Assembly (NCBI GenBank): GCA_965200875.1 | Contig: OZ241456.1 | Span: 512,001 to 576,000 of the forward strand | Length of the DNA stretch: 64,000 nt | DNA from: Bdellovibrionales bacterium | GTDB taxonomy: Bacteria > Bdellovibrionota > Bdellovibrionia > Bdellovibrionales > UBA1609 | Direction: 5' to 3' | Shown: positions 530 to 57,222 of the stretch, piece after piece | How positions within the stretch are numbered: the first letter of the stretch is position 1 | Layout of the letters: each line of letters starts with the position of its first letter | Program-made: the position numbers and the translations under genes | The notes under the pieces: model-generated | The model's database searches: none | Seen by the model: only the letters and a program-made list of their open reading frames with translations | Told to the model about the DNA's origin: nothing

Positions 530-598
530 GTTTTTAATATATCTCTATCATCTTTTGAAGTCAGTCTATGATTTTGTAAATTCTGACCAATTTATTGA

Positions 599-619
599 GG
601 CCCGGATTTTACGGGTTTT
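599..619 (+). terminator. Possible intrinsic terminator
   Basis: CCCG-gatttta-CGGG hairpin followed by TTTT downstream of the 209..529 ORF; the stem is short. Confidence 0.3.
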
Positions 620-701
620 CAATTTAATAAACAGTATTCTTTTTAATGTCTTAAAAACTAGCTTTTTATACAGTTTTATCTAGCGATAGGTGTATATTGC
701 G

Positions 702-728
702 CCCCCTTTCTTTATGATTCCCTTTCCT
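702..728. repeat. Dispersed intergenic repeat, copy 1
   Basis: CCCCCTTTCTTTATGATTCCCTTTCCT recurs at 46498-46525 with a 1-nt indel. Confidence 0.75.
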
Positions 729-840
729 TATTCATGTAAAATATTCAAGGCCCATCCGAAAAAATCCAGGGAAACGCCCGTAAACTTTATTTATCCGGCT
801 CATTGTGATATTTATGCAGTGGAGTGGCCCCTATTTTTGG

Positions 841-42956: not shown

Positions 42957-45932
42957 CTACAAGGCTGGGTAGTTCTCTCTTCCCGGCCATTTAAAGTTTT
43001 CATAATTTCTTTCTGGATAACTAGGGAATTGTTTAAGAGAAGAGTCCTCTTTTCTTTTTTTGGCATATTCTCCTTGTGTTCTGATACCTTTTTTCTCAAC
43101 AACAACTTGTTGAAATACCTCTAATGGTGGACGATTTACCTTTGTGACACGACTTCTCCCTGGCCATTTAAAGCCCGGATAATTTTTTTCTGGATGGTTT
43201 GGGAATCGTTTAAGTTCTTCATCTTTTTTTCTTTGGTTTTGATATTCCTGTTGCGTTCCAATACCCTTTTGTTCAACCACAATTTGCTGAAACACCTCTA
43301 CTGGTGGACGGTTTACCTTTGTAATACGACTTCTCCCCGGCCATTTAAAGCCTTGATAACTTCTTTTTGGAACACTGGGGAATCGTTGAAGCTCTTCGTC
43401 TTTTTTCCTTTGGTTGTCATATTCCCGTTGTGTTCTGATATTCTTTTGCTCAACAACTTGTTGAAACACCTCTACTGGTGGACGGTTATCCTTTGTGACT
43501 ATATATTTCATCTTGTATTTCATCTCTGGCCATATAAAGCCTTCATAGTTGTTTTCTGGTTCGCTGGGGAAACGTTTAAGTTCTTCGTCTTTTTTCCTTT
43601 TTTTGGCATATTCTCCTTGTGTTCTGATGTCCTTTTGTTCAACCACAATTTGCTGAAACACCTCTACTGGTGGAAGGTTATCCTTTGTGATAACCTTTCT
43701 CTTCCCCGGCCATATAAAGTCTTCATAGTTGTTTTCTGGTTCGCTGGGGAAACGTTTAAGTTCTTCGTCTTTTTTCCTTTTTTTGGCATATTCTCCTTGT
43801 GTTCTGATGACCTTTTGTTCAACAACAATTTGCTGAAATACCTCTAATGGTGGACGATTCCCCTTTGTGACACGATTTCTCCCTGGCCATTTAAAGCCTT
43901 CATAGCTTCTTTCTGGGTGGCTGGGGAATCGTTTAAGTCTTTCATCTTCTTTTCTTTTATTTTGATATTCCCATTGTGTTCTTATATCCTGTTGCTCAAC
44001 AACAACTTGTTGAAACACCTCCAATGGTGGAAGCTTATTCTTTGTGACAGGGGAGACACTCCAAAACTTCTGGACAGTTTCTTCCAATATCTTTCTGAAT
44101 TTTGCTAAATCCTCTCTTTCAAAAATATGTCTGCTTGACGAGTTTGGAGAGGCTTTTACTCCTGTGCTTTCTGTACCTAATTCTTCGTTCACATTATCCC
44201 GTATCGTCCGACTGAAAGACACTGTCTTTATAGTATCCAATATGTTCAATAATTCCCTAGCAACTTGTTCATCACGATAATCTATCAGCAATATAATATC
44301 TGATGAAAACTTCCCAGCTTTCAGTCGCAAAACTCTTCCTATTCTCTGTAACATATTCTTTATAGGGATGTTTGCATTTAAATCGATGTAAGCTGAAAGA
44401 TGAGGCAAATCAATTCCCTCATCCAAACTCCTGACTGCCACAATATAATGTGTCTTTCCTTTTTCATGGGACCTCTCTATAACAACCCTTTTCTCCTCTG
44501 CGGAGCGTTCTTGGTGATAGGAATCAAATTGTATCTCAGGAAAAACATTGCTTAAAAACTCCGTTAAACGTTCTGCCTCACGAATCGTGGCTGTCACAAT
44601 AAATCCTTTTTCATTGGATCTTAAAACTGGGTATAGAATCTGTGCTAATTTTTCATAAAAATCCGGGTTTAAAATTTTACGATTGTTTTTATACTCTACT
44701 GTAAATAGCTCTCCTTCCTTTCCATTGGTTTTGAACAGGGTGTCCGCAATAAAGTACAAATTATCAAAAGGCGTTAAATCTCCTCTTTCTATTCCTTCTG
44801 ATAATTGCCTTAAAATACCTTCCGAAGAATGGCTTTCAAATAAATTACCGGATTTAGTGAGATAAGACCAATGTGTCTTTTCAAATAAACTTCTTAAGCT
44901 CACTTCATGGTGTATCGGGGTGGCCGTAGCTCCATACAGAAAAGCCTCACTTTGTTCTTGCAGGTTCAACAGGACATCTTTTGTGATCTGTGCTCCCAGA
45001 TGATGAGCCTCATCTATAAAAATGGAAGAAAGACGTAAAGAGAGTTGTTTGTAATGTTCTGTATTAGGCTCTTTAAGTATTTTCTTTAAGCTTTGAGTGG
45101 TCATTACAAAAACAGTGGGGCCGTTATGTCTGCTCGCTTGCGCGAGAGTTTTCGCGAAACTATCTCCTGTTTGACTGTTCCAGTTGATAACCTGAATATC
45201 CATAGCATTATCCTGTTTGGTGGATTCAGCTATTTCCGTTTTAATAGCCTGTGAGAGTTGCTCCACAATATGCACTCGATTAACCGTGGCTATGGCTATG
45301 TTTTTTTCTTTGGAGGAGTGTCTTATCTGTTCTATGAGTGCTTTAGTGAGAACCAGCGTTTTCCCGACACCGGTGGGGCATATATGGAGGAAGCTTTTTG
45401 CACCATCATGCAGGGCTTGTTGGTATGCAGAGAGAGCAAGAGACTGTACAGGTTTCATCATGATTTTTCCTTCAGAAAAGTAAGGGTGAAGCTCATGTCC
45501 TACAAGCCAGTATCTGAGTTTGTGGCCCAAAGAAGGATTTTGAAAAAAATCAATAGAGGGAATTTTAAGGGTTTTAGATTTACCGTCTGTGTGAAACTCA
45601 GGGGAGGAGATGCGACTATCTATTTTTATCTCAAAGTTTATGGAGGTTTTGGAGACAAGCTTTAAACATCCAGTGCCACAGGTTTTTAATTCCATATTTT
45701 CCAAAGCTTCCGGCTTTAATATCCCAGTGATAGAGGTTTCAACGAGGGAATGAAATACATTTCCAGAGTCTCTTTGGTTGCTTACAGGCGAGGAGTTTTT
45801 TCCCTGTTCAGCAGGGTTATCTGTTTTTTCATGCTCAGGGAAGGCATCTTTGCAATTTGCCAACAAAGAAAGCGGGAAACAGAAGCACATAATGAACCAA
45901 AAAGATATTATTTTTAAGTGTATAAAATTCAT
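42957..45932 (-). CDS. SF2 DEAH (ResIII-like) helicase with an N-terminal signal-like peptide and C-terminal ~60-aa repeats
   Basis: CPTGVGKT, IDEAHH, GATATP, LDEGIDLP, QRIGRVLR. Confidence 0.88.
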   Translation of the reverse strand: MNFIHLKIISFWFIMCFCFPLSLLANCKDAFPEHEKTDNPAEQGKNSSPVSNQRDSGNVFHSLVETSITGILKPEALENMELKTCGTGCLKLVSKTSINFEIKIDSRISSPEFHTDGKSKTLKIPSIDFFQNPSLGHKLRYWLVGHELHPYFSEGKIMMKPVQSLALSAYQQALHDGAKSFLHICPTGVGKTLVLTKALIEQIRHSSKEKNIAIATVNRVHIVEQLSQAIKTEIAESTKQDNAMDIQVINWNSQTGDSFAKTLAQASRHNGPTVFVMTTQSLKKILKEPNTEHYKQLSLRLSSIFIDEAHHLGAQITKDVLLNLQEQSEAFLYGATATPIHHEVSLRSLFEKTHWSYLTKSGNLFESHSSEGILRQLSEGIERGDLTPFDNLYFIADTLFKTNGKEGELFTVEYKNNRKILNPDFYEKLAQILYPVLRSNEKGFIVTATIREAERLTEFLSNVFPEIQFDSYHQERSAEEKRVVIERSHEKGKTHYIVAVRSLDEGIDLPHLSAYIDLNANIPIKNMLQRIGRVLRLKAGKFSSDIILLIDYRDEQVARELLNILDTIKTVSFSRTIRDNVNEELGTESTGVKASPNSSSRHIFEREDLAKFRKILEETVQKFWSVSPVTKNKLPPLEVFQQVVVEQQDIRTQWEYQNKRKEDERLKRFPSHPERSYEGFKWPGRNRVTKGNRPPLEVFQQIVVEQKVIRTQGEYAKKRKKDEELKRFPSEPENNYEDFIWPGKRKVITKDNLPPVEVFQQIVVEQKDIRTQGEYAKKRKKDEELKRFPSEPENNYEGFIWPEMKYKMKYIVTKDNRPPVEVFQQVVEQKNIRTQREYDNQRKKDEELQRFPSVPKRSYQGFKWPGRSRITKVNRPPVEVFQQIVVEQKGIGTQQEYQNQRKKDEELKRFPNHPEKNYPGFKWPGRSRVTKVNRPPLEVFQQVVVEKKGIRTQGEYAKKRKEDSSLKQFPSYPERNYENFKWPGRENYPAL
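42980..44050 (-). repeat. Six intragenic tandem repeats of 174-192 bp
   Basis: PP(L/V)EVFQQ anchors near 44018, 43841, 43661, 43469, 43295, 43118. Confidence 0.95.
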
Positions 45933-46090
45933 GGCATTTTAACCGGGATTTAAAAGGGTATTTGTTTTTCCATGTGATTTCATTGATTAATAGAGAATTT
46001 TATCAATGATTGATAAAGGATTTTATCAATCATACTAAAAAAAACTATTTTTAAAAGTAAATGGTAATTTTTTACATACTTTATTTTGTA

Positions 46091-46525
46091 GGCAAACAAA
46101 GTGTTTCATTATAACAATTTTGCAACTATTTTCTAGGAAAATGATAAAAAAATCAAGTGATAAAAGTATTTTATCAACATTCCAAAGGCTTTTCACAACA
46201 TAAAATTGCCTGTGTCTTCAGCAGTATTTGCCCTGTGTATTCCCTGATTTTCACAGACTTTGATGTTTTTCCGGCAGAGCTGAATATAGCTCAAAAATGC
46301 TCTGAAAATTCCACTTATATAGATAAACGATGCGAAAAAATTAGAGCTGATATGTGGGATAATGAGGAAAACGGAGCTTGTGATTAAAACCTGAGTACGA
46401 AGGGGTAGGCACTGTTTTCCCCGGTGGCCAAAAATGCCTTTTTTGCGCAGTTTTATATCAGAAAAAAAGATGCTCCCCCTTTCGCGATTGAAAGCCACCC
46501 CCTTTTCTTTATGATTCCCTTTCCT
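46091..46525. other. Mosaic of short fragments homologous to other loci in the window
   Basis: Matches to 50954-50995, 53852-53896 (inverted), 50211-50266 (inverted) and 702-728. Confidence 0.8.
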
Positions 46526-46616
46526 AAAGTCTGGGTTGGGAGAGACGATAAGTGAAAAAGTAGTTATATTTAATTTGGTTCTGAATAAATATTATTTTTA
46601 GGAATAAGCACACAGA

Positions 46617-48785
46617 ATGAGAAATAAACACAGTAGAAAGAATACAGGGCAGTTGGCCATTTTTATTATTCTGCTTTTTCCTGTGTTGTTTACTCTGTTC
46701 GCCATGTCTTTAAATATCACTTTAGTAGTGCATGATAAAATCAATCTTCAAAATTCTGTTGATATCGCTGCCTACTACGGTGCTATGAAACAGGCTGAAA
46801 TGTTAAACGCCATTGCTCATATAAACTATCAAATCCGCCAGTCTTGGAAACTTCTGGTATGGAGATATAGGGTTTTGGGTAGCGTAAGTCTTACGCATCG
46901 TCCAGAGTGGGGAAATCCCGCACTCGCTGTTGAGAGGGAACATTGGCCACAATCTCTGAAAAATCTACAGATAGGACCTTATTTTTTCTGTGTTGGACAT
47001 AAAGATTGGGGTTGGTTCATAAAAAAGGGTGGTGGTTCTGTAAACATTCCAAGGACTAGAGAAGATAAACCAACTGATATGCTTTGTAATGAAATGGGGG
47101 GGCGTATCAACGCACCTAGCGTGCCAAGTTTCAGTGGAAGTTTAGGAAGTCTCTCTGGTGTCCTAAGGAATATAAGCCGTGCCGGGAATACGATCAGGGA
47201 GCAATTAGAAGGCAAATGCAAGCTTTATGGGTATAATTCATGGTTGCTTGGTGCTTTGTCTTTTTCTCATTTTCGCGCGGACCAAACCGCTAGAAAACAA
47301 ATGATATATTACCTTGCAAAGGCTATGTCTGGCAAGCTTGCAGGGTTTCCTCATAAACATGGCACAGATTTAAATGGCGATTCCATAGCTTCTGGAGTTA
47401 AAAAAACTTTTGAAAGAAACTTAACTTATATAAATGGTAAAGCTTTTAAAGAAACACCAGACAACCCTTTTATACAATTTAATTCCCTAGAAAGAGTGTT
47501 GTCACCTTCAGATTGGTTAGAGGACACACCTTTTTGGGCTTTGGGGCTTTTCGCTGATATTCATCCAGTAGGGAAAGCTTGTGAAAAAAACTTAAAATTT
47601 TTGCGTCAAGGATCATCAGTCCTTAGTGATAAGAGTTTAAAAAGTATACTTTTAGGAGAGCAAGATATGAACTGGCCAGGATGTGTCACAGGAAATTCCC
47701 TATGTTCCCCTTCTGCCGGTCTCCATAAAAAAAGAAATTTTCTAATTTTTTACTCTGTAAAAGCTGAACTAAAATATAAATGTCAGATTTTTTTACCCTG
47801 GGGATGTGGTGATGGGGGTAATGTGTATTTAAAAGCAAAAGCTTTCGCAAAGCCTTTTGGGGGAACTATAGGTCCTATAGGACCAAGATCAGCATCATTG
47901 CGTGGAGAAGATCCTTTACTACCTAATCCTCATGGTGAAAGCCCAAGTGGAGATCTTGTGAAACTTGACAAAAAATTCACCCCCAACTATTCCCGCTATC
48001 CAGGAGATAAATTTGGTTTGAGATCATCTTATGTACATTACTACTGGGCTGAGCACATACAACGCTCTCCACATGACACAAAAAATATAAAATTTTACTT
48101 AAAAGGTAATCATGGTGATGACAGAGACCCTTTAGCTAGGGGTATAATCCCACCGGGAGTAAAAAGTTTACTTGCCCGGAAATGGGAGATAATGGCGGTT
48201 GCTCCAGATATTTTTGATGTAACTTATTTCACTATTTTACCTTATTACATGCAAACATACTTTCCAAAAATCAAAGTTCTTTTGAAGAATGAACCCGTCA
48301 ATTTAAGAGGGGGGTTTGGTTCATATAAAGCCGGCAACGACTTTCAATGGAAGTATGGTATTTTAGGCCAGCACAAAACTATAACCGGGCAACCACCAGA
48401 GCTAAGAATCGATGACTTATGGTTTTTAAGTCATTATTCAGCCCCGCGTCCGCGCCCACCTTGGTATAAAATAGCAAAACTTGAACAACTACTCACTGGC
48501 TGGAATCCCCCTAAAGAAAAATATGTATCTAACAGTAATGAGCAATATAACATTAACCGCTCTAAATTTAGTTTATGTGGTAAAACCCTTCGTGAGGATG
48601 ATCAATGGGTACATAATTTTGGAATTAATATGTCTCCCGGAGTAATAAAAGGTAAAATCGCCACAGGCTGTATTTACGGCGGACGAACGGGTTATTCTGT
48701 GAAAATGATTTCTGCTGAATTTATCAAAGGTTTTAGTGTTAGAGGTGTAAGTGATCTTAGAAACCCATTCCCGGCTTGGTATTAA
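46617..48785 (+). CDS. TadG-related pilus assembly protein
   Basis: GQLAIF prepilin-like site, hydrophobic helix, KINLQNSVDIAAYYGA Tad motif. Confidence 0.85.
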   Translation: MRNKHSRKNTGQLAIFIILLFPVLFTLFAMSLNITLVVHDKINLQNSVDIAAYYGAMKQAEMLNAIAHINYQIRQSWKLLVWRYRVLGSVSLTHRPEWGNPALAVEREHWPQSLKNLQIGPYFFCVGHKDWGWFIKKGGGSVNIPRTREDKPTDMLCNEMGGRINAPSVPSFSGSLGSLSGVLRNISRAGNTIREQLEGKCKLYGYNSWLLGALSFSHFRADQTARKQMIYYLAKAMSGKLAGFPHKHGTDLNGDSIASGVKKTFERNLTYINGKAFKETPDNPFIQFNSLERVLSPSDWLEDTPFWALGLFADIHPVGKACEKNLKFLRQGSSVLSDKSLKSILLGEQDMNWPGCVTGNSLCSPSAGLHKKRNFLIFYSVKAELKYKCQIFLPWGCGDGGNVYLKAKAFAKPFGGTIGPIGPRSASLRGEDPLLPNPHGESPSGDLVKLDKKFTPNYSRYPGDKFGLRSSYVHYYWAEHIQRSPHDTKNIKFYLKGNHGDDRDPLARGIIPPGVKSLLARKWEIMAVAPDIFDVTYFTILPYYMQTYFPKIKVLLKNEPVNLRGGFGSYKAGNDFQWKYGILGQHKTITGQPPELRIDDLWFLSHYSAPRPRPPWYKIAKLEQLLTGWNPPKEKYVSNSNEQYNINRSKFSLCGKTLREDDQWVHNFGINMSPGVIKGKIATGCIYGGRTGYSVKMISAEFIKGFSVRGVSDLRNPFPAWY

Positions 48786-48839
48786 CTCATTCCACCGGAA
48801 AGTTTTAAAAATAAGGAGTAAGATATTAAAAAAAAGAAA

Positions 48840-49445
48840 TTGTTATTTTCCAGCAAGGGAAGTTTGACAGTTCAGTTTGTGCTTGGATTTGCTCTTGTGT
48901 GGGGTTTTATAGCACTTTTTGCGGTCATGTGTTTTACCTTGGCAGTAAGTAGCATCACACAGTATATAACTTTTGCTTCCGCCCACGCTTTATTTTTGGG
49001 AGACGGAGATTTAACAGCACAAAAAGACGCGGCTTTTGAAACCTATAAGGATTTGAAGAACAAATTTCGTAATCAAGAAGGTGCAGGTATTTTCAGCCCC
49101 GATGTAATTGATATATACCAAGAACAAGAACTACTAGATATGGGACTGGGACTTAATACGGCTTTTCAAGTTACCAAACCTAACTTGTTTTATGGAGCTT
49201 GGACAAAGTTTGTCCCCAAAGTGTTGAAGATAAACACTTTTTTTGGAGATTCAGGAAAAGATGATAATTTTTTTAAGACCACCATTGGTTCTTATCTTGG
49301 GCGTGAACCGACTATGGAAGAATGTGATCTTTTTTTTGATCAAGAAAGGTCGAAAAAGATATATGAATATCACCAAAACAACTGGCATCATACAGCACCC
49401 CTTCCCCGAATGGTAGGTATTAAGGTTTTTGATAATGGTTGTTAA
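48840..49445 (+). CDS. TadE-like pseudopilin
   Basis: KGSLTVQF prepilin-like N-terminus, QYITFASA, SYLGREP, DNGC end. Confidence 0.65.
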   Translation: MLFSSKGSLTVQFVLGFALVWGFIALFAVMCFTLAVSSITQYITFASAHALFLGDGDLTAQKDAAFETYKDLKNKFRNQEGAGIFSPDVIDIYQEQELLDMGLGLNTAFQVTKPNLFYGAWTKFVPKVLKINTFFGDSGKDDNFFKTTIGSYLGREPTMEECDLFFDQERSKKIYEYHQNNWHHTAPLPRMVGIKVFDNGC

Positions 49446-49704
49446 TGAAGAGGGTGTTATCAACCTAAAGAAGGTGAACTTGTATTTAACAAAGATAGTG
49501 CAAAACTTGATCCCGACCATGAAGCTTGTAAAGCGTTACAAGAAGAAGCTCAGGCTAAGTGTGATGCTTTACCCCCACCAGGGGCTGGTGATATTAAGCA
49601 ATATAGTGGTTCAGCTATTTATAAAGATTACACTTAATGCTCTTAACAGTACAGAAGGCTTTGGAAAATAGAAATATGTTAAAGGGTGTTTCACGGGCGA
49701 AAAA

Positions 49705-50655
49705 TTAGAGCTTTAAGCTTTCCTGTAGCTCTTTAATTTTCTCTGCTGATACACCAGTGATTTCAATGATCATGGAAATTTGCATATTTTTTTGGAGCAT
49801 ATTCAAAGCTATTTGTTCCATGCCTGTCTTCAAACCTTTCTCCATGCCTTTGTTAAAGGCATAAGCTTTTTCTGCACGCTGATCTCTTAAAAATTTCTCC
49901 CGTGCCTCTTCTTCCCGGCGCAAATCCTCATCTTGGGACAAATCTTTTAAATGTTCCATTGCTCTTCTCATCTCTTCCCCCTTACTCGTTGATAATATAT
50001 CCCACTCTCTTTTTCCTATGTGGCAGGACTCTTTTAAAAGATAGCACCATAAGTCCCGCAAATCAACTATCTCCTTCAGACTCTCTGGCCTCGCTCTCAT
50101 AAACTTACTTAATTCCACAAACACTATCTTTTCATCATCGATCAAGGAAGAATGTGGCTCTTTATCCGATCGCAAAGAAAAGGAATTGATAAAATCTCTA
50201 TACTTTTTTACCGGAAGAACATCAAAGTCTGTGAAAACCAAAGAATATGCAGGGCAAATACTGCTGTAATCTGCTGACTTCTTTAAACTCTCCGTGTAAA
50301 GTCTAGACCAATAAAAAAGCACTCTTTTCAAAAAACCTATTTTTAAGACAGACTGTATTTCCACATTCACAGTTTCTCCGGTACTGAGTCTTATTCTCAA
50401 ATCCAGAACAATTTGCTTGTTGTCTGCCAAAGAGGGATAAAGGGAGCTATCTAAGAGAGTTAATGTTTCTTCATCAACAAGGGAATCCAATGCTTTTTTA
50501 TCTCCTATGAAGGATATATCTTGCACTTTTTGATTGGGAGGAAGAGGCAAAAAGGCATTTAAAAGAGATTTCAGGACTTCTTTGTTTTTAGAGAAATAGG
50601 TCTTGAACATGAGGTCCTGGCTTAAGTTTAAAAATTTGCTACGATTTGTTTTCAT
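49705..50655 (-). CDS. Rpn-family PD-(D/E)XK nuclease/putative transposase
   Basis: DLMFKTYF, VLDLRI...VNVEIQ, RVLFYWSRLY, FVELSKF, C-terminal KGMEKG...IALNML...ITGVS. Confidence 0.93.
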   Translation of the reverse strand: MKTNRSKFLNLSQDLMFKTYFSKNKEVLKSLLNAFLPLPPNQKVQDISFIGDKKALDSLVDEETLTLLDSSLYPSLADNKQIVLDLRIRLSTGETVNVEIQSVLKIGFLKRVLFYWSRLYTESLKKSADYSSICPAYSLVFTDFDVLPVKKYRDFINSFSLRSDKEPHSSLIDDEKIVFVELSKFMRARPESLKEIVDLRDLWCYLLKESCHIGKREWDILSTSKGEEMRRAMEHLKDLSQDEDLRREEEAREKFLRDQRAEKAYAFNKGMEKGLKTGMEQIALNMLQKNMQISMIIEITGVSAEKIKELQESLKL

Positions 50656-50703
50656 GTGTAAAGCTCCTTTAAAAAAAGTGATTTATTGTTAATAAATAGT
50701 TCA

Positions 50704-50719
50704 TGCAAAATCCGTGCCA
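50704..50719 (-). promoter_or_regulatory. sigma54 (-24/-12) promoter
   Basis: TGGCACGGATTTTGCA matches TGGCACG-N4-TTGCW exactly, about 50 nt upstream of the Rpn start and its AAGGAG RBS. Confidence 0.8.
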
Positions 50720-50820
50720 AACTGATCTCAAGGGTTTGATATCGCCAAACACGATTTTTACGGGAGAATTGGCAAACGTATTATCTTAAGAGGCCCGTAA
50801 AAAAGAGTATTTATATGTAC

Positions 50821-50939
50821 AGCTTATTTGCTCATACCTCACCGCTCGGTTTCAAACATGCGTTTTGCCACACACGCGTCTTTCAGTCGAGGTGTGCTCA
50901 AATCCGAACTCGCCTCGCGTTGGGTATGAGCAATAAGCT
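50821..50939. repeat. About 120-nt GC-richer palindromic element (REP/MITE-like or structured RNA)
   Basis: Terminal stem AGCTTATTTGCTCATACC / GGTATGAGCAATAAGCT; the core recurs inverted at 52870-52901. Confidence 0.6.
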
Positions 50940-51464
50940 TTTTACATTTTTTCGGCAAACAAAGTGTTTCGTTATAAAACTTTGCAAGTATTTTCCCAAC
51001 TAACAAGTGGCTCGTGAAAAAGCCAAGTTGTTGATTTTTCAGTCCCTTGAAAACGGAAATTTTGTTGAGTTTTAGGCAAATGTTCCATCCATTTTCCTTA
51101 AAAAAATGTACTTTTTCGCGCCTGATTAAAAAGTGATCATAATGTGTTAAAAACTTTTTCACAGGGGATTATCTTAGAGAGTGTAAAATTTACATATATT
51201 CATATTTATTTCCATAAAGCTTGTTTTTTTAAGGGCAGGGTCTTGTCATTGATTCCAGTTTTGTATTATAAAGGTGTAATAGTATTTTCTTGAAAAATAT
51301 TTATTTGGGATATCCAAAAACTTTGAATCCACAGGTTGTGATGGTTCAGACAGTATGATACTCCAGCGGACTTGCTTTTATGCTTTGGGTTCAAAATTGC
51401 AGGATATATCACAATAAATGTTGTGGGTTTACTGGAGCTTTTAAAGTATAAAGAACTACAACAG

Positions 51465-51790
51465 TATGGAAAACAAGCAACATTGAGCTCTGGAAAAAAG
51501 CAAGAAGTATTAAGAATTTTTGAATGAAAGCTGGGAAACAGCAAGAAACATAAACAAGCAACATAAGAATTTTTGAATGAAAGCTGGGAAACATGCAGGA
51601 AACAAGGTTTAATGAGAACTGGTCAAAAACAAGCAACATAAGGTTGAATGAAAGCTGGGAAACAGCAAGAAACATAAACAAGCAATATGAGGTTTGAAAA
51701 ACATCAAAAAAAATGAAAGCTGGAAAAACATCAAAAAAAACAAAAATTAGGAACAAAACAAACAAAAAATCTATAAGGAGGAAACAAAGA
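51465..51790 (+). repeat. A-rich imperfect repeat tract with GCTG-GGAAA-CAGC hairpins
   Basis: TGAATGAAAGCTGGGAAACA at 51521, 51574, 51645 and a variant near 51712; AAACAAGCAA four times. Confidence 0.85.
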
Positions 51791-52749
51791 TGAGAACAGG
51801 AAACAATGTGTATGTAAATGGTTGTACAAATTCAGGTGCTGGTAAAAGAGCGGGTGGTCTTGGAGATACCCACTTAATTGGTTGGGCTTTTTCTCGTTTG
51901 ATTGTTACAAATCTTTTGAAAATTGTTGGTTTGTCTTTGTCGTTGGTGCTTTTTTCCTTAAATGTTTTCGCTGAGATGAATTTTTTTACCTGTCATGACA
52001 TGACTCAGCAGAGCTATGACGAGTATAAACTTGTTTATGAAGATGATCCGGGCAATGTGAGAAAAACTTACAGCATGAGTGTGAAGGCAATTTGTGTAGG
52101 GAAAATGGCTGAGGGTATGACTTTGTTGGAGCGATCTTCTGCCGGAGGGCATGTGGTAGGTTCTTTCTATATGGCTGTTTATTATAAAACAGATAAGACT
52201 TTTGATACTAACAGAGGAACAACCAGAGATCCGGAAAATTTTAATGCTTCTTTATTTTACTACAAAAGGGCAGTGGCTCAGATTGAATCCAACCCCAGCT
52301 ATCCTGAAGGCACTTACAAAAATATACCTTACATGGAAGAACATAACCAAATCAGTGTACGGGCTTTTACAATGGTACCCATGATGTATTATAGAGGGTA
52401 TAGTAACGCTATTAAGGATATACTGGGTAATGTAGATAGAGTGGTGTATATAGATACTTTGGAAGCTTTAGAAAATATGAAACAATCCAGTGAGCAGTGC
52501 CTTGCCCGGCCTTCTCTTCCTGTATGGAAAGAGAAACAAAAGCATGCTTATCAAGTGATGCAGGTGCGTTGTCAGGCCATGCGGGATTTTTCGATACAAG
52601 TTTATCCCTTAGAGCAGGAGCGAATAGGAATAGCTGAAGAGTGTGTTGATTCTTTAAAGGATTGCTCTGAGCACAATACAGTTGTTTATGATAAAATTGT
52701 TCCTTTAATAAAGAAGATGGTAAACGAATACAAATCTATTTCTCTCTGA
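51790..52749 (+). CDS. Secreted hypothetical protein, Sel1/TPR-like
   Basis: AAGGAGG RBS; hydrophobic signal ending VFA; LERSSAGGHVVGSFYMAVYY and ASLFYYKRA resemble Sel1 helices. Confidence 0.6.
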   Translation: MRTGNNVYVNGCTNSGAGKRAGGLGDTHLIGWAFSRLIVTNLLKIVGLSLSLVLFSLNVFAEMNFFTCHDMTQQSYDEYKLVYEDDPGNVRKTYSMSVKAICVGKMAEGMTLLERSSAGGHVVGSFYMAVYYKTDKTFDTNRGTTRDPENFNASLFYYKRAVAQIESNPSYPEGTYKNIPYMEEHNQISVRAFTMVPMMYYRGYSNAIKDILGNVDRVVYIDTLEALENMKQSSEQCLARPSLPVWKEKQKHAYQVMQVRCQAMRDFSIQVYPLEQERIGIAEECVDSLKDCSEHNTVVYDKIVPLIKKMVNEYKSISL

Positions 52750-53065
52750 AACTTTTAAAGAACCTGATAATGCCATTTTGAAGCTGTTTGCAAAAAACCG
52801 GCATGAGATTTGGTTTTGAGTGTGTAGTGGTTGAAAAGGTACTTGTACGACAAAACACAGCAGACGGAGCTGAAAGACGTTTGCGTGGAAAAAACGCATG
52901 TCTAATGGCCCAATTGGTGAAGTATTGATAAAAAATCGTGGATTCAGCAAAGTTCATTTACCTGCAATTAAAGCCTTGGTGCTTTGTCTGATGTTTTTTT
53001 GAAAAAAAAATTAAGAAAAAAGTGTTTTAACCGATAATATTGCTAAGCATGCTTTTTATGGGAGG

Positions 53066-54964
53066 TTGGCTATGCGTATTATCTTTTTTATGCTTTATTT
53101 TCTAAGTGTTTCATATACAGCAAGTGGTAATGATCATCCTCAGATTGGTGATGATTTACTTGACGGTGACGGTGACTCAAGAATAAAAGAAGGTATTTGT
53201 ATAACAAAAGAAGACCATTTAAAATTGAAATATAATAACAGGTCTGTACCTTCTGAGTGTAGTTGTGAGCGACACAATGACGAACAAGAGAAGGTTGAGC
53301 AATGTTTCAACACATATATTTGCAAGGAACAGTGTAAAGATTATATCAGAGAGAATGCAAATTATTGTGACAACATTCCCAACAACAGGAACAATGAGAA
53401 TGCTCTGTGCCAAGAAAGATGTGATGGAAGTAGTCCTAATTTCTCAGTACAATCTTTTTCCCAATCCAGTGATGTAACTGACTGTGTTCGAGAAAATAGA
53501 AGAAAGCTACAAGACCAGTTAGTTGAAAGCTGTCGGAGTAGAATAAACAACATTGAAAACTCTCCCCCTCATACTGGGGCAACATTGGTGTGTCCGGGTG
53601 GAGCCGGCTGTGAAAGGTATTGCCAAAGCATGGCTCAGGAAAAAAGCAATAATATTCAAGGTTGCAAAAAAGTGACAACTAAAGATGTTTTCGATCAGTG
53701 TTTGGAATTGAATAATCGGTTAAGCCATGTTCTTCCACAAAATTCTAGTCAGCTACCTCAGGGTTTTGCATGGGAAAACTGTGATCTGGGAAAAACTTGT
53801 GATCAGGAAATCCAAGTGGTTTTTAATAACACCCATACTGCGTGTGAGAATCTGAAGACACAGGCGGTTTTGTGTTGTGAGAAACCTTTGGAATGTGGTG
53901 ATGAACAAATGGCAACACTTTTTAACTCCGTGGATAAATTCAATGTACAAGGAGGAATGTCTGAAATTTGCCGGAAGGCTGGGGAGAAGTTTAGTGATGT
54001 GGGAGAAGCTGGTCGCAAGATGGCAGAACAATGCAACGCACGCTCTTCTTCTTGTTTGGAGATTTGCCGGCAGAAGATAGAAAATATCAATGTTCTTTTA
54101 CGGAATATCTGCACATTCGATTTACTGAAAGAAAGTTTTTACAATCCTGAAAGACACACTTGCAGTGGTCGGTTGATTGATAAGTATGTTCGTCTTTACA
54201 AACAACATTTGGAACCCGTGGCATTTCAATGTAAAGAAACAAGTAAAAAATCCACAGAAATAGCCAGTATGGCGTCAGAGATTTTAAAGTCTGCTTTGTC
54301 TTCCGCAAATTGTGATTTGGAGGCCAGAGCAGGTATGTCTTCGTCAGGTTCAAATACTGTTTCAGAAAAACAGCATCGTGTTCCTGAAGCGGAAAATCTG
54401 AGGGCAGGGTCTGCTGTTTCAGACAGTTCTTCTCTGAAATGGGGGGGGGCGTCAAAAACCAGCTCGGAAAGCAGTGGTGGTGGAGGTAAAGTTTCAAAGG
54501 ATACATCTTCTGCGCTTAATAATAAAGTGGGAACATTTTCAAACTCTGGAGGAGGAGGGGGTGGATGGTCTGGCTATGATTCCAATGGAGACACTTCAAA
54601 CAGTGGTTTGGCAGGTAGAGGTGTTTCCAATTATAATCAGAATAAGGGAGATATTTGGTCAAAAATGCAGGGATCATTAGGAAAAGATGTTGAACAAGAG
54701 AAAGAAGGTGAAATCCAAGTTGTTGATAAAACCAAAAGCGAGAAGGAAGGTGAAGATGCTCAGGTTTTAGAGGAGGAATTGGCGGGAGCTTTTGGGGCTG
54801 AAAATGGTCAAGGTCTTTCATGGGATAAAATAAAGCCTGATAATGTACATAAGCGTGTCAGTTCTTTTGGTTCTCTGCATGATGATATTTTTAAACGAAT
54901 TTCCGATCGTATTTTTGTTATGTGCAGTACAGATAAACTCATTGATTGCAAAGGTTTTAGGTGA
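53066..54964 (+). CDS. Secreted Cys-rich protein with a Gly/Ser-rich linker
   Basis: Signal peptide, many CxxxC pairs, low-complexity S/G tract, C-terminal HDDIFKRISDR. Confidence 0.75.
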   Translation: MAMRIIFFMLYFLSVSYTASGNDHPQIGDDLLDGDGDSRIKEGICITKEDHLKLKYNNRSVPSECSCERHNDEQEKVEQCFNTYICKEQCKDYIRENANYCDNIPNNRNNENALCQERCDGSSPNFSVQSFSQSSDVTDCVRENRRKLQDQLVESCRSRINNIENSPPHTGATLVCPGGAGCERYCQSMAQEKSNNIQGCKKVTTKDVFDQCLELNNRLSHVLPQNSSQLPQGFAWENCDLGKTCDQEIQVVFNNTHTACENLKTQAVLCCEKPLECGDEQMATLFNSVDKFNVQGGMSEICRKAGEKFSDVGEAGRKMAEQCNARSSSCLEICRQKIENINVLLRNICTFDLLKESFYNPERHTCSGRLIDKYVRLYKQHLEPVAFQCKETSKKSTEIASMASEILKSALSSANCDLEARAGMSSSGSNTVSEKQHRVPEAENLRAGSAVSDSSSLKWGGASKTSSESSGGGGKVSKDTSSALNNKVGTFSNSGGGGGGWSGYDSNGDTSNSGLAGRGVSNYNQNKGDIWSKMQGSLGKDVEQEKEGEIQVVDKTKSEKEGEDAQVLEEELAGAFGAENGQGLSWDKIKPDNVHKRVSSFGSLHDDIFKRISDRIFVMCSTDKLIDCKGFR

Positions 54965-56524: not shown

Positions 56525-57222
56525 TGTCTGATTTAAAAACTATTGATTTATCAAAATTTGAGGAAAAAATCCATTTGGAGGGTTGCGAAGAACCTTTGAA
56601 TATCTATGCTTATCGTATGGATGGAAACCAGAAAAAGAATATACCTGAAATGGCAAAAGATGCTGATCTGGGTACTCCAACCTGTTGTGATTATTTGTAT
56701 GTTTCTAATAATAATCAGTTAGCTATTCTGATAGAGGATACCCAGTTGGTTACACACTGGAAAAACGAACAAGAGAGGTGGTTAGATTTGAATAAAGAAA
56801 AGACCGAAATCAATAGTGAAAATACAGAAAAGAAGCAGTTAGGTTCGAATAATAAAAGCAGTAATAAAACTACAGAAGAAGAACAGAAAAAAGAACGAGA
56901 AAAGGTGTGGGAGCGTATGAAACCCCAGCTTGTTAAAGAAAACTGCCTGAAAGTGTATGGAGCTTTTTTGATCTTATGTCGCTTGGCGCGCAAGTATAAA
57001 AAAATCTCTAATATATTGGATAATAAACAGTATTGGTTTTATTTTGTGATTAATGATGGAGATAATATCAAGGACAAAGGTGATATTAAGGCTTTGGAAG
57101 ATATTATGGATTTTTTCTCGAAAAAATTTGAAAAGTGTCTATTAGGTACGCTCGGTGGTGCGAAATTAGTAAAAAAAGTGAAAGTGCTTTTTCCGTCTCA
57201 TTTGAGAGAACGACTTGACTAA
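56524..57222 (+). CDS. Hypothetical partner of the ATPase, possible PD-(D/E)XK-like nuclease
   Basis: TAATG stop/start overlap; CCDYLYV...ILIEDT motif. Confidence 0.55.
   Translation: MSDLKTIDLSKFEEKIHLEGCEEPLNIYAYRMDGNQKKNIPEMAKDADLGTPTCCDYLYVSNNNQLAILIEDTQLVTHWKNEQERWLDLNKEKTEINSENTEKKQLGSNNKSSNKTTEEEQKKEREKVWERMKPQLVKENCLKVYGAFLILCRLARKYKKISNILDNKQYWFYFVINDGDNIKDKGDIKALEDIMDFFSKKFEKCLLGTLGGAKLVKKVKVLFPSHLRERLD

Follow-up and report, generated by a model that had tools for sequence, protein, structure and literature searches.

A three-gene patchwork between broken repeats in a Bdellovibrionales genome: a probable scar of a collapsed accessory island

Within one intergenic spacer of a Bdellovibrionales bacterium, two broken repeats enclose adjoining remnants of three accessory genes that are unrelated to one another, all in a span of 226 bp. 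We regard this spacer as probably the non-functional scar of a decaying accessory island that collapsed by serial illegitimate deletions. The host genome is metagenome-assembled (1.87 Mb in two contigs, 37% GC, 94.5% complete; labelled G000). Its closest named relatives by RuvB are Bdellovibrionales metagenome-assembled genomes at 78-83% identity; related strains are present in sponge metagenomes, and the genus is called sponge-associated. The window is the whole stretch of DNA that was analysed, 64,000 nucleotides corresponding to C1:512001-576000 of this genome; unprefixed positions refer to the window and those with 'C1:' to the whole contig. Genes outside the window were taken from our own ORF caller, with approximate coordinates. 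Relatives of the same genus include G001-G012, of which G003, G005, G009 and G012 are cited individually, and L-numbers denote loci.

The spacer and its flanks contain the following features.

42957..45932, minus strand: ResIII/DEAD helicase-like gene with C-terminal tandem repeats, the left neighbour of the spacer
46013..46085, no strand: low-copy intergenic repeat with five similar places (BLASTN)
46068..46176, minus strand: repeat A, an IS5-family left-end stump (55 nhmmer matches), which includes the first piece of the earlier note
46157..46387, plus strand: 76-aa chimeric ORF with a GTG start inside the IS end (ORF list)
46177..46221, minus strand: 45-bp remnant, antisense, from inside the Cys-rich 632-aa gene (about aa 263-277; DNA match)
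46219..46274, plus strand: 56-bp internal remnant of an Rpn gene (PDDEXK_2, TIGR01784), sense, with a 3-nt overlap (CAG) with the Cys-rich piece
46275..46308, plus strand: 34 bp for which DNA comparison gave no match, sharing the frame of the piece that follows (frame and the conserved Cys of the lipoprotein family)
46309..46402, plus strand: remnant of a small Cys-containing lipoprotein gene, 88% over 95 columns with a 1-nt frameshift (intact paralog at C1:581523-581867)
46403..46528, start approximate, no strand: repeat B, a truncated, imperfectly palindromic dispersed repeat (36 profile matches), which includes the fourth piece of the earlier note
46617..49445, plus strand: second copies of two genes, one Tad/TadE-G-like (722 aa) and one TadE-like (201 aa) (related copies at C1:225 kb and C1:199 kb)
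49454..49637, plus strand: C-terminal half of a lipoprotein paralog of a second type (sequence comparison)
49705..54964, mixed strands: intact cassette of Rpn (minus), a 319-aa gene (plus) and the Cys-rich 632-aa gene (plus) (ORFs; second partial copy at C1:1608-1612.5 kb)

A BLASTN search of 45900-46650 against the genome returned 83 matches, among which the four short matches listed by the earlier note were all present at their places. That note took every piece to be related to other genes. This is so for 46177-46221 and 46219-46274, but its first and fourth pieces are dispersed repeats. Its list was also incomplete, missing the lipoprotein piece at 46309-46402, whose donor at C1:581523 lies 23 kb away and outside the window. 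The 76-aa ORF that the pieces were said to form does exist, but the two repeat-derived pieces lie outside it. The second contig (C2, 43 kb) has a phage-genome-like gene list, and no mosaic piece maps there.

The Cys-rich piece matches the reverse complement of 53852-53896 at 40/45 positions (E 2e-9) and has no other match in the genome; its flanks agree with those of the donor at only 11/40 and 10/40 positions, and identity beyond the coding pieces generally falls to 6-14 of 40. The Rpn piece spans 18 codons, and its match to the local gene (50266-50211; 50/56) is real, but three distant copies among the five paralogs are closer, at 52/56. All coding pieces differ by 7-12% from every present copy. 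The synonymous bias claimed for the pieces was confirmed in the Cys-rich one, where four of the five changes are synonymous and the fifth is conservative, but does not extend to the Rpn piece (one synonymous, two non-synonymous) or to the lipoprotein piece (two synonymous, five non-synonymous and a 1-nt gap). Both of the Rpn residues that differ from all five copies in this genome are the residues of an intact Rpn in G009. The bias in the Cys-rich piece and the G009-like residues thus suggest that these two donors were other working alleles, in support of the earlier proposal that functional alleles or paralogs, rather than the exact copies now present, had served as donors. The lipoprotein piece, on this reading, underwent later decay. 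The 34 bp at 46275-46308 are probably the divergent N-terminal part of the same lipoprotein remnant, since they are in frame with the piece at 46309 and their last codons fall on the conserved Cys of the lipoprotein family. Across 69 short remnants genome-wide, third positions account for 211 of 429 differences.

The neighbouring Rpn gene (49705-50655) scores well above the family cut-offs (PDDEXK_2, 117 bits against 27.4; TIGR01784, 107.3 against 52.1). From one genome to another the number of PDDEXK_2 matches ranges from 0 to 52. The Cys-rich protein and the lipoprotein match no family in Pfam or NCBIfam and no usable family in the ESM Atlas. The 319-aa and Cys-rich 632-aa pair (51790-54964), likewise with no family match, has matches in 12 of 15 genomes of the genus. 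In G012 it has undergone tandem amplification, with 34 matches (G012:C7:1127000-1166000). Beside the intact lipoprotein gene sits a gene for a 253-aa protein (the two together at C1:580742-581867, L019) with a weak metallopeptidase match (Peptidase_M10, E 0.0016, below cut-off); lipoprotein matches number nine in G003 and five in G009, often with the same 253-aa partner beside them, and the two proteins are possibly an enzyme-inhibitor pair. In metagenome contigs, 192 pattern matches to the lipoprotein yielded none that was confirmed. A contig from run X6 joins the C-terminal half at 49454-49637 in frame to a lipoprotein N-part; hence in that related strain the lipoprotein is intact and the island is arranged differently. 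The idea that a single lipoprotein gene had been split into halves by the Tad pair was weakened, as the two pieces resemble different types, the N-piece that at C1:581523 and the C-piece another. At 46617-49445 the Tad/TadE-G-like gene is itself a second copy, 70% identical, and adjoins the TadE-like gene, whereas the related copies elsewhere are 26 kb apart; G009 also carries two Tad copies, and the pair in the window is possibly a pilus-tip variant cassette.

Both flanking repeats are broken. On the left, 46083-46133 is 88% identical over 51 columns to 50946-50995, the latter being one repeat A copy among dozens. Repeat A also precedes, by 22 bp, a truncated IS5 transposase at C1:171467 (NF033578, 282.6 bits against a cut-off of 275), and in G009 it immediately precedes 10 of 15 transposase matches, including 445-aa copies that exceed the cut-off (467.6 bits for an intact one). 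Hence 46068-46176, like other solo or partial ends of this family, is the left end of an IS5-family element; unlike the intact 445-aa elements of G009, it is a stump and not an active end, stopping about 17 bp short of the terminus seen in three G009 copies and missing the terminal inverted repeat. Because that repeat has been lost, the joint with the Cys-rich piece was not made by transposition. Inside the stump, at 46135-46108 on the minus strand, lies a promoter-like site (10/12, with an extended -10) that points to the helicase gene, and IS-end stumps of this kind may serve as promoters. On the right, 46499-46525 matches 702-728 at 26/27 positions, again one copy among dozens, here of repeat B, for which the 36 profile matches count some loci on both strands. 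Elsewhere repeat B mostly flanks secreted pentapeptide-repeat genes, and the copy in the spacer is without its left arm.

As we reconstruct the collapse, an extra, inverted copy of the mobile Rpn / 319-aa / Cys-rich cassette, of a since-lost allele, would once have lain here, with the IS5 end to its left and a lipoprotein module to its right. Unrelated sequences sharing 0-5 nt of microhomology would then have been joined by RecA-independent deletions: Cys-rich to Rpn sequence (at CAG), the IS end to Cys-rich, Rpn to lipoprotein, and lipoprotein sequence to repeat B. Each cut would have left a short stub. What we infer from the pieces comprises this starting layout, the succession of deletions and the enzymes responsible. 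An origin by tandem-inversion-duplication was also considered, but is indistinguishable from insertion of a second cassette.

The identity, order and orientation of the pieces are observed directly, as are the missing tip of each repeat and the existence of parallel fusions that have collapsed less. When the cassette at 49705-54964 is inverted and 3,585 bp are removed across CAG, the pieces at 46177-46274 result in the order and orientation seen. At C1:1217879-1219101 there is a less collapsed fusion with other end-points and the same polarity, in which an IS end is followed by 372 bp that end in the Cys-rich gene (antisense) and then by Rpn in sense from about codon 50, with a 4-nt overlap at the fusion joint. 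This fusion and the collinearity with the inverted cassette support the earlier suggestion that the spacer is the collapsed remnant of a duplicated locus. In addition, a C-terminal stub of the Cys-rich gene stands upstream of another Rpn gene at C1:585807-587435. A similar scar in G012 consists of an Rpn 3' end with its flank, a 178-bp internal Cys-rich piece (5-nt overlap by BLAST coordinates) and then a repeat; paralogous copies stop there at nested points (136, 154, 242, 294 and 372).

The donor families also keep company in relatives. Islands of G003 (L058-L060) combine Rpn with both the 319-aa/Cys-rich pair and the 253-aa/lipoprotein pair, and in G012 and G005 Rpn shares islands with the 319-aa/Cys-rich pair (12 regions were examined in relatives); the two pairs otherwise occur in varied contexts. 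The donors are therefore island neighbours and not random DNA. Rpn followed by a co-oriented lipoprotein gene was found at none of 12 island regions and 8 lipoprotein loci, where the two are convergent or divergent, and a single collinear ancestor is thus shown for the Cys-rich and Rpn pieces only. Further points weigh against a collapse. Three deletion end-points within about 100 bp require long erosion or luck, and no present copy is the actual donor, nor does any relative preserve the orthologous spacer. Indeed, no alignable orthologous spacer was found in relatives, and in the 14 other genomes of the genus searched the mosaic was seen in none, these having only repeat A, parts of Rpn and short weak matches.

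Among known cases, the decaying pseudogene remnants of host-associated bacteria such as Buchnera (PMC3164680) are alike in being recognisable stubs of lost gene copies with no sign of function. Here, by contrast, the stubs of three accessory genes of unrelated kinds lie side by side, and the genome retains recA and comEC and continues to turn over its islands. No paper on mosaics of this kind in the genus came up in literature searches. As a scar, the spacer matters little; it shows island decay in an unusually compact form.

It is, nevertheless, the extreme case of a genome-wide pattern of remnants. When intergenic DNA was compared with all coding DNA at a threshold of at least 45 bits, repeats with at least five copies being masked, 101 remnant segments were located in 83 of 987 spacers: one donor family was represented in 78 of these, two in four and three in this spacer alone. 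In a chance control, the intergenic-to-coding comparison gave 386 match bins of at least 45 bits and reversed DNA gave none. Donors lay 3-30 kb away in 9 of 87 cases (2.6 expected) and, for single-copy donors, in 6 of 12 (0.35 expected), this locus included.

Several other short pieces were seen. At C1:581948-582041, 94 bp antisense to the 232-aa gene (window 56969-57062) abut an Rpn end with a 4-nt overlap; pieces of 35 and 49 bp lie beside an IS3-like element at window 552-820; and the 24 bp at window 49650-49673 recur exactly at C1:586175.

Short-patch capture during natural transformation offers a different account, one to which we give a low but appreciable probability. By SPDIR or by homology-facilitated illegitimate recombination (HFIR), single strands from related strains would have annealed at microhomologies, or been anchored by the IS-end or Rpn repeats, to bring in either a 98-bp Cys-Rpn fragment that was already fused or a number of short ones. 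The repair and uptake genes comEC, dprA, recO, mutS and recJ were assessed by family searches: the first four are present in this genome, and recJ was found in none of 13 genomes of the genus (G000-G012) but in 6 of 8 genomes of the same order, the only DHH protein here having a 333-aa frame. In Acinetobacter baylyi, SPDIR produces microindels of 3 to about 100 bp (10.1101/2023.11.22.568220); combined loss of recJ and exoX raises SPDIR about 30-fold (10.1101/2024.07.02.601687); and loss of recJ raises HFIR 20-fold, with joint microhomology of 3-10 bp (PMC3240628). The patch sizes of 45, 56 (98 together) and 95-128 bp fit the SPDIR range, and the pieces resemble alleles from other strains. Short-patch capture stays a rival, therefore, as the genus is without recJ and this genome keeps comEC and dprA.

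The likeness to the A. baylyi processes, namely short ectopic patches, few-base microhomology and a recJ loss that favours them, stops at the donors and at the patch ends. Here there are three donors in a row; they are neighbours in one island and two of them are collinear, which random capture would not predict, and larger intermediates exist (C1:1217879-1219101). No recipient sequence that SPDIR would have replaced is recognisable, and no extended microhomology is evident at the two patch ends; at the joints with both sides available, the overlaps are 0 and 3 nt. This genome carries RecA, DprA and RecO, all suppressors of SPDIR in A. baylyi. For HFIR, repeats A and B could be anchors, and one of four joints is blunt.

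The joints themselves carry limited information. The earlier note described the pieces as joined by microhomology; the CAG overlap between the Cys-rich and Rpn pieces was confirmed, but the joint between repeat A and the Cys-rich piece has an overlap of 0, and 6.8% of random blunt joins have an overlap of at least 3 nt. The CAG overlap alone is thus weak evidence of microhomology and is not significant (P 0.07). Two further hand-picked joints each have overlaps of 4 nt, and the four junction sequences (CAG, TAGG, ATCA and blunt) have no consensus. An automatic survey of 209 junctions, with a mean overlap of 7.2 among the 108 whose overlap was at least 0, was rejected as a test, most of its rows being internal to modular repeat families; from it the random-join null was retained, beside the four junctions picked by hand.

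A further alternative, which we hold to be improbable, is that nicks made by Rpn nucleases near Rpn genes provoked template switching or end joining that stitched DNA from the flanks together, so that the mosaic would be a footprint of Rpn activity. PMC5350276 reports RecA-independent recombination for E. coli Rpn proteins and speculates that their off-target activity makes substrates for microhomology-mediated island assembly. In this genome 22 of 73 low-copy patches derive from Rpn genes, and the ends shared by Rpn copies close to the gene are sharp, though variable. The earlier note had proposed looking for mosaics near other Rpn genes. Of 55 spacers with patches of non-Rpn origin, 18 indeed had an Rpn gene no more than 5 kb away, against a background of 109 of 556, but the excess is modest and is what one would expect were Rpn genes merely located in unstable islands. 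The Rpn/YhgA-like family (PDDEXK_2, TIGR01784) includes one piece and the gene next door, but nothing ties the junctions to Rpn cleavage. The junctions lack a consensus, and Rpn ends show neither terminal repeats nor target duplications.

The earlier note had also raised the possibility of a site that captures fragments to yield antisense or guide-like RNA. We consider it very improbable that the spacer is such a dedicated site, acting against the Cys-rich, Rpn and lipoprotein genes, or that it encodes a functional 76-aa protein. Three pieces do match genes within 25 kb at 88-93%, and the Rpn and lipoprotein pieces share one frame. Yet one piece is antisense and two are sense, their sizes are unequal, no repeats lie between or flank them, and the lipoprotein piece is frameshifted. 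Over the mosaic there was no Rfam match at E ≤1, promoter-like sites numbered 4 against 3.7 expected, a terminator was not found, and folding was no better than that of shuffled sequences (z -0.44 and +0.10). Reverse transcriptase (RVT_1, PF00078) had no match in this 94.5% complete genome, and none of the 38 spacers of the CRISPR array, which is located elsewhere and is I-F-like with 32-nt spacers in 37 of 38, matches the mosaic. The mosaic thus fails the tests for a CRISPR/Cas1-made, a reverse-transcriptase-made or an RNA-gene origin, and it recurs in none of the 14 other genomes. With no ribosome-binding-like motif upstream and no Pfam match, the 76-aa ORF can be read as an accident of two in-frame remnants.

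The CRISPR-Cas operon and its 38-spacer array (C1:997933-1013306, outside the window) are bracketed in a composite-element-like manner by two 98% identical direct copies of Rpn (Transposase_31). Its cas1 was identified by Pfam; the other genes are presumably type I-F-like cas genes, labelled so from size and sequence. A three-repeat mini-array (C1:701584-701733) abuts another Rpn copy.

An assembly chimera is the reading to which we give the least credence. The region is repeat-rich and the genome metagenome-assembled, but a contig from run X1 covers 44200-46670 and thus every junction at a depth of 23 (26 for the next contig), with no other letters and one gap; X1 may be the source sample. 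Nor is the 7-12% divergence from the donors expected of a mis-join. An exact search of metagenome contigs for the junction 24-mer gave no match. Among the contigs listed for runs X3, X4 and X6 none crosses the junctions, which has no bearing either way.

Returning to a collapsed island as the preferred account, it is tempting to speculate beyond it, doubtful as the following reading is. A genus that is recJ-less, bears genes for DNA uptake and is expanded in Rpn could build and erode islands by short-patch, microhomology-guided recombination at a naturally visible rate, the three-donor mosaic, and perhaps some 18 direct-repeat spacers, being natural footprints of SPDIR-like or Rpn-triggered stitching. 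Were this true, a stitching so far known mainly from laboratory mutants would be seen in nature. Equally, should one of the rivals hold, a recJ-less, Rpn-rich genus with near-complete genomes would offer a natural setting in which to test if islands are built by SPDIR-type capture or by Rpn nucleases, a matter left as speculation in PMC5350276.

The direct-repeat spacers are some 18 intergenic pairs of 24-40 bp direct repeats, each enclosing an insert of 19-46 bp with a period of 56-72, mostly without a match elsewhere. Examples are at C1: 434341, 502509, 507783, 534373 (window 22373), 647329, 975514 and 1426135; G009 has comparable cases at L051:6483 and L062:10253. Such pairs could reflect template switching or off-target Cas1 integration, but their lengths are non-uniform. 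At C1:501535-501624, 30-bp direct repeats 60 bp apart surround a piece that is 30/32 antisense to a core gene (C1:1476200-1476231), which we take to be nuoG-like, and the 60-bp period is that of the genome's CRISPR array.
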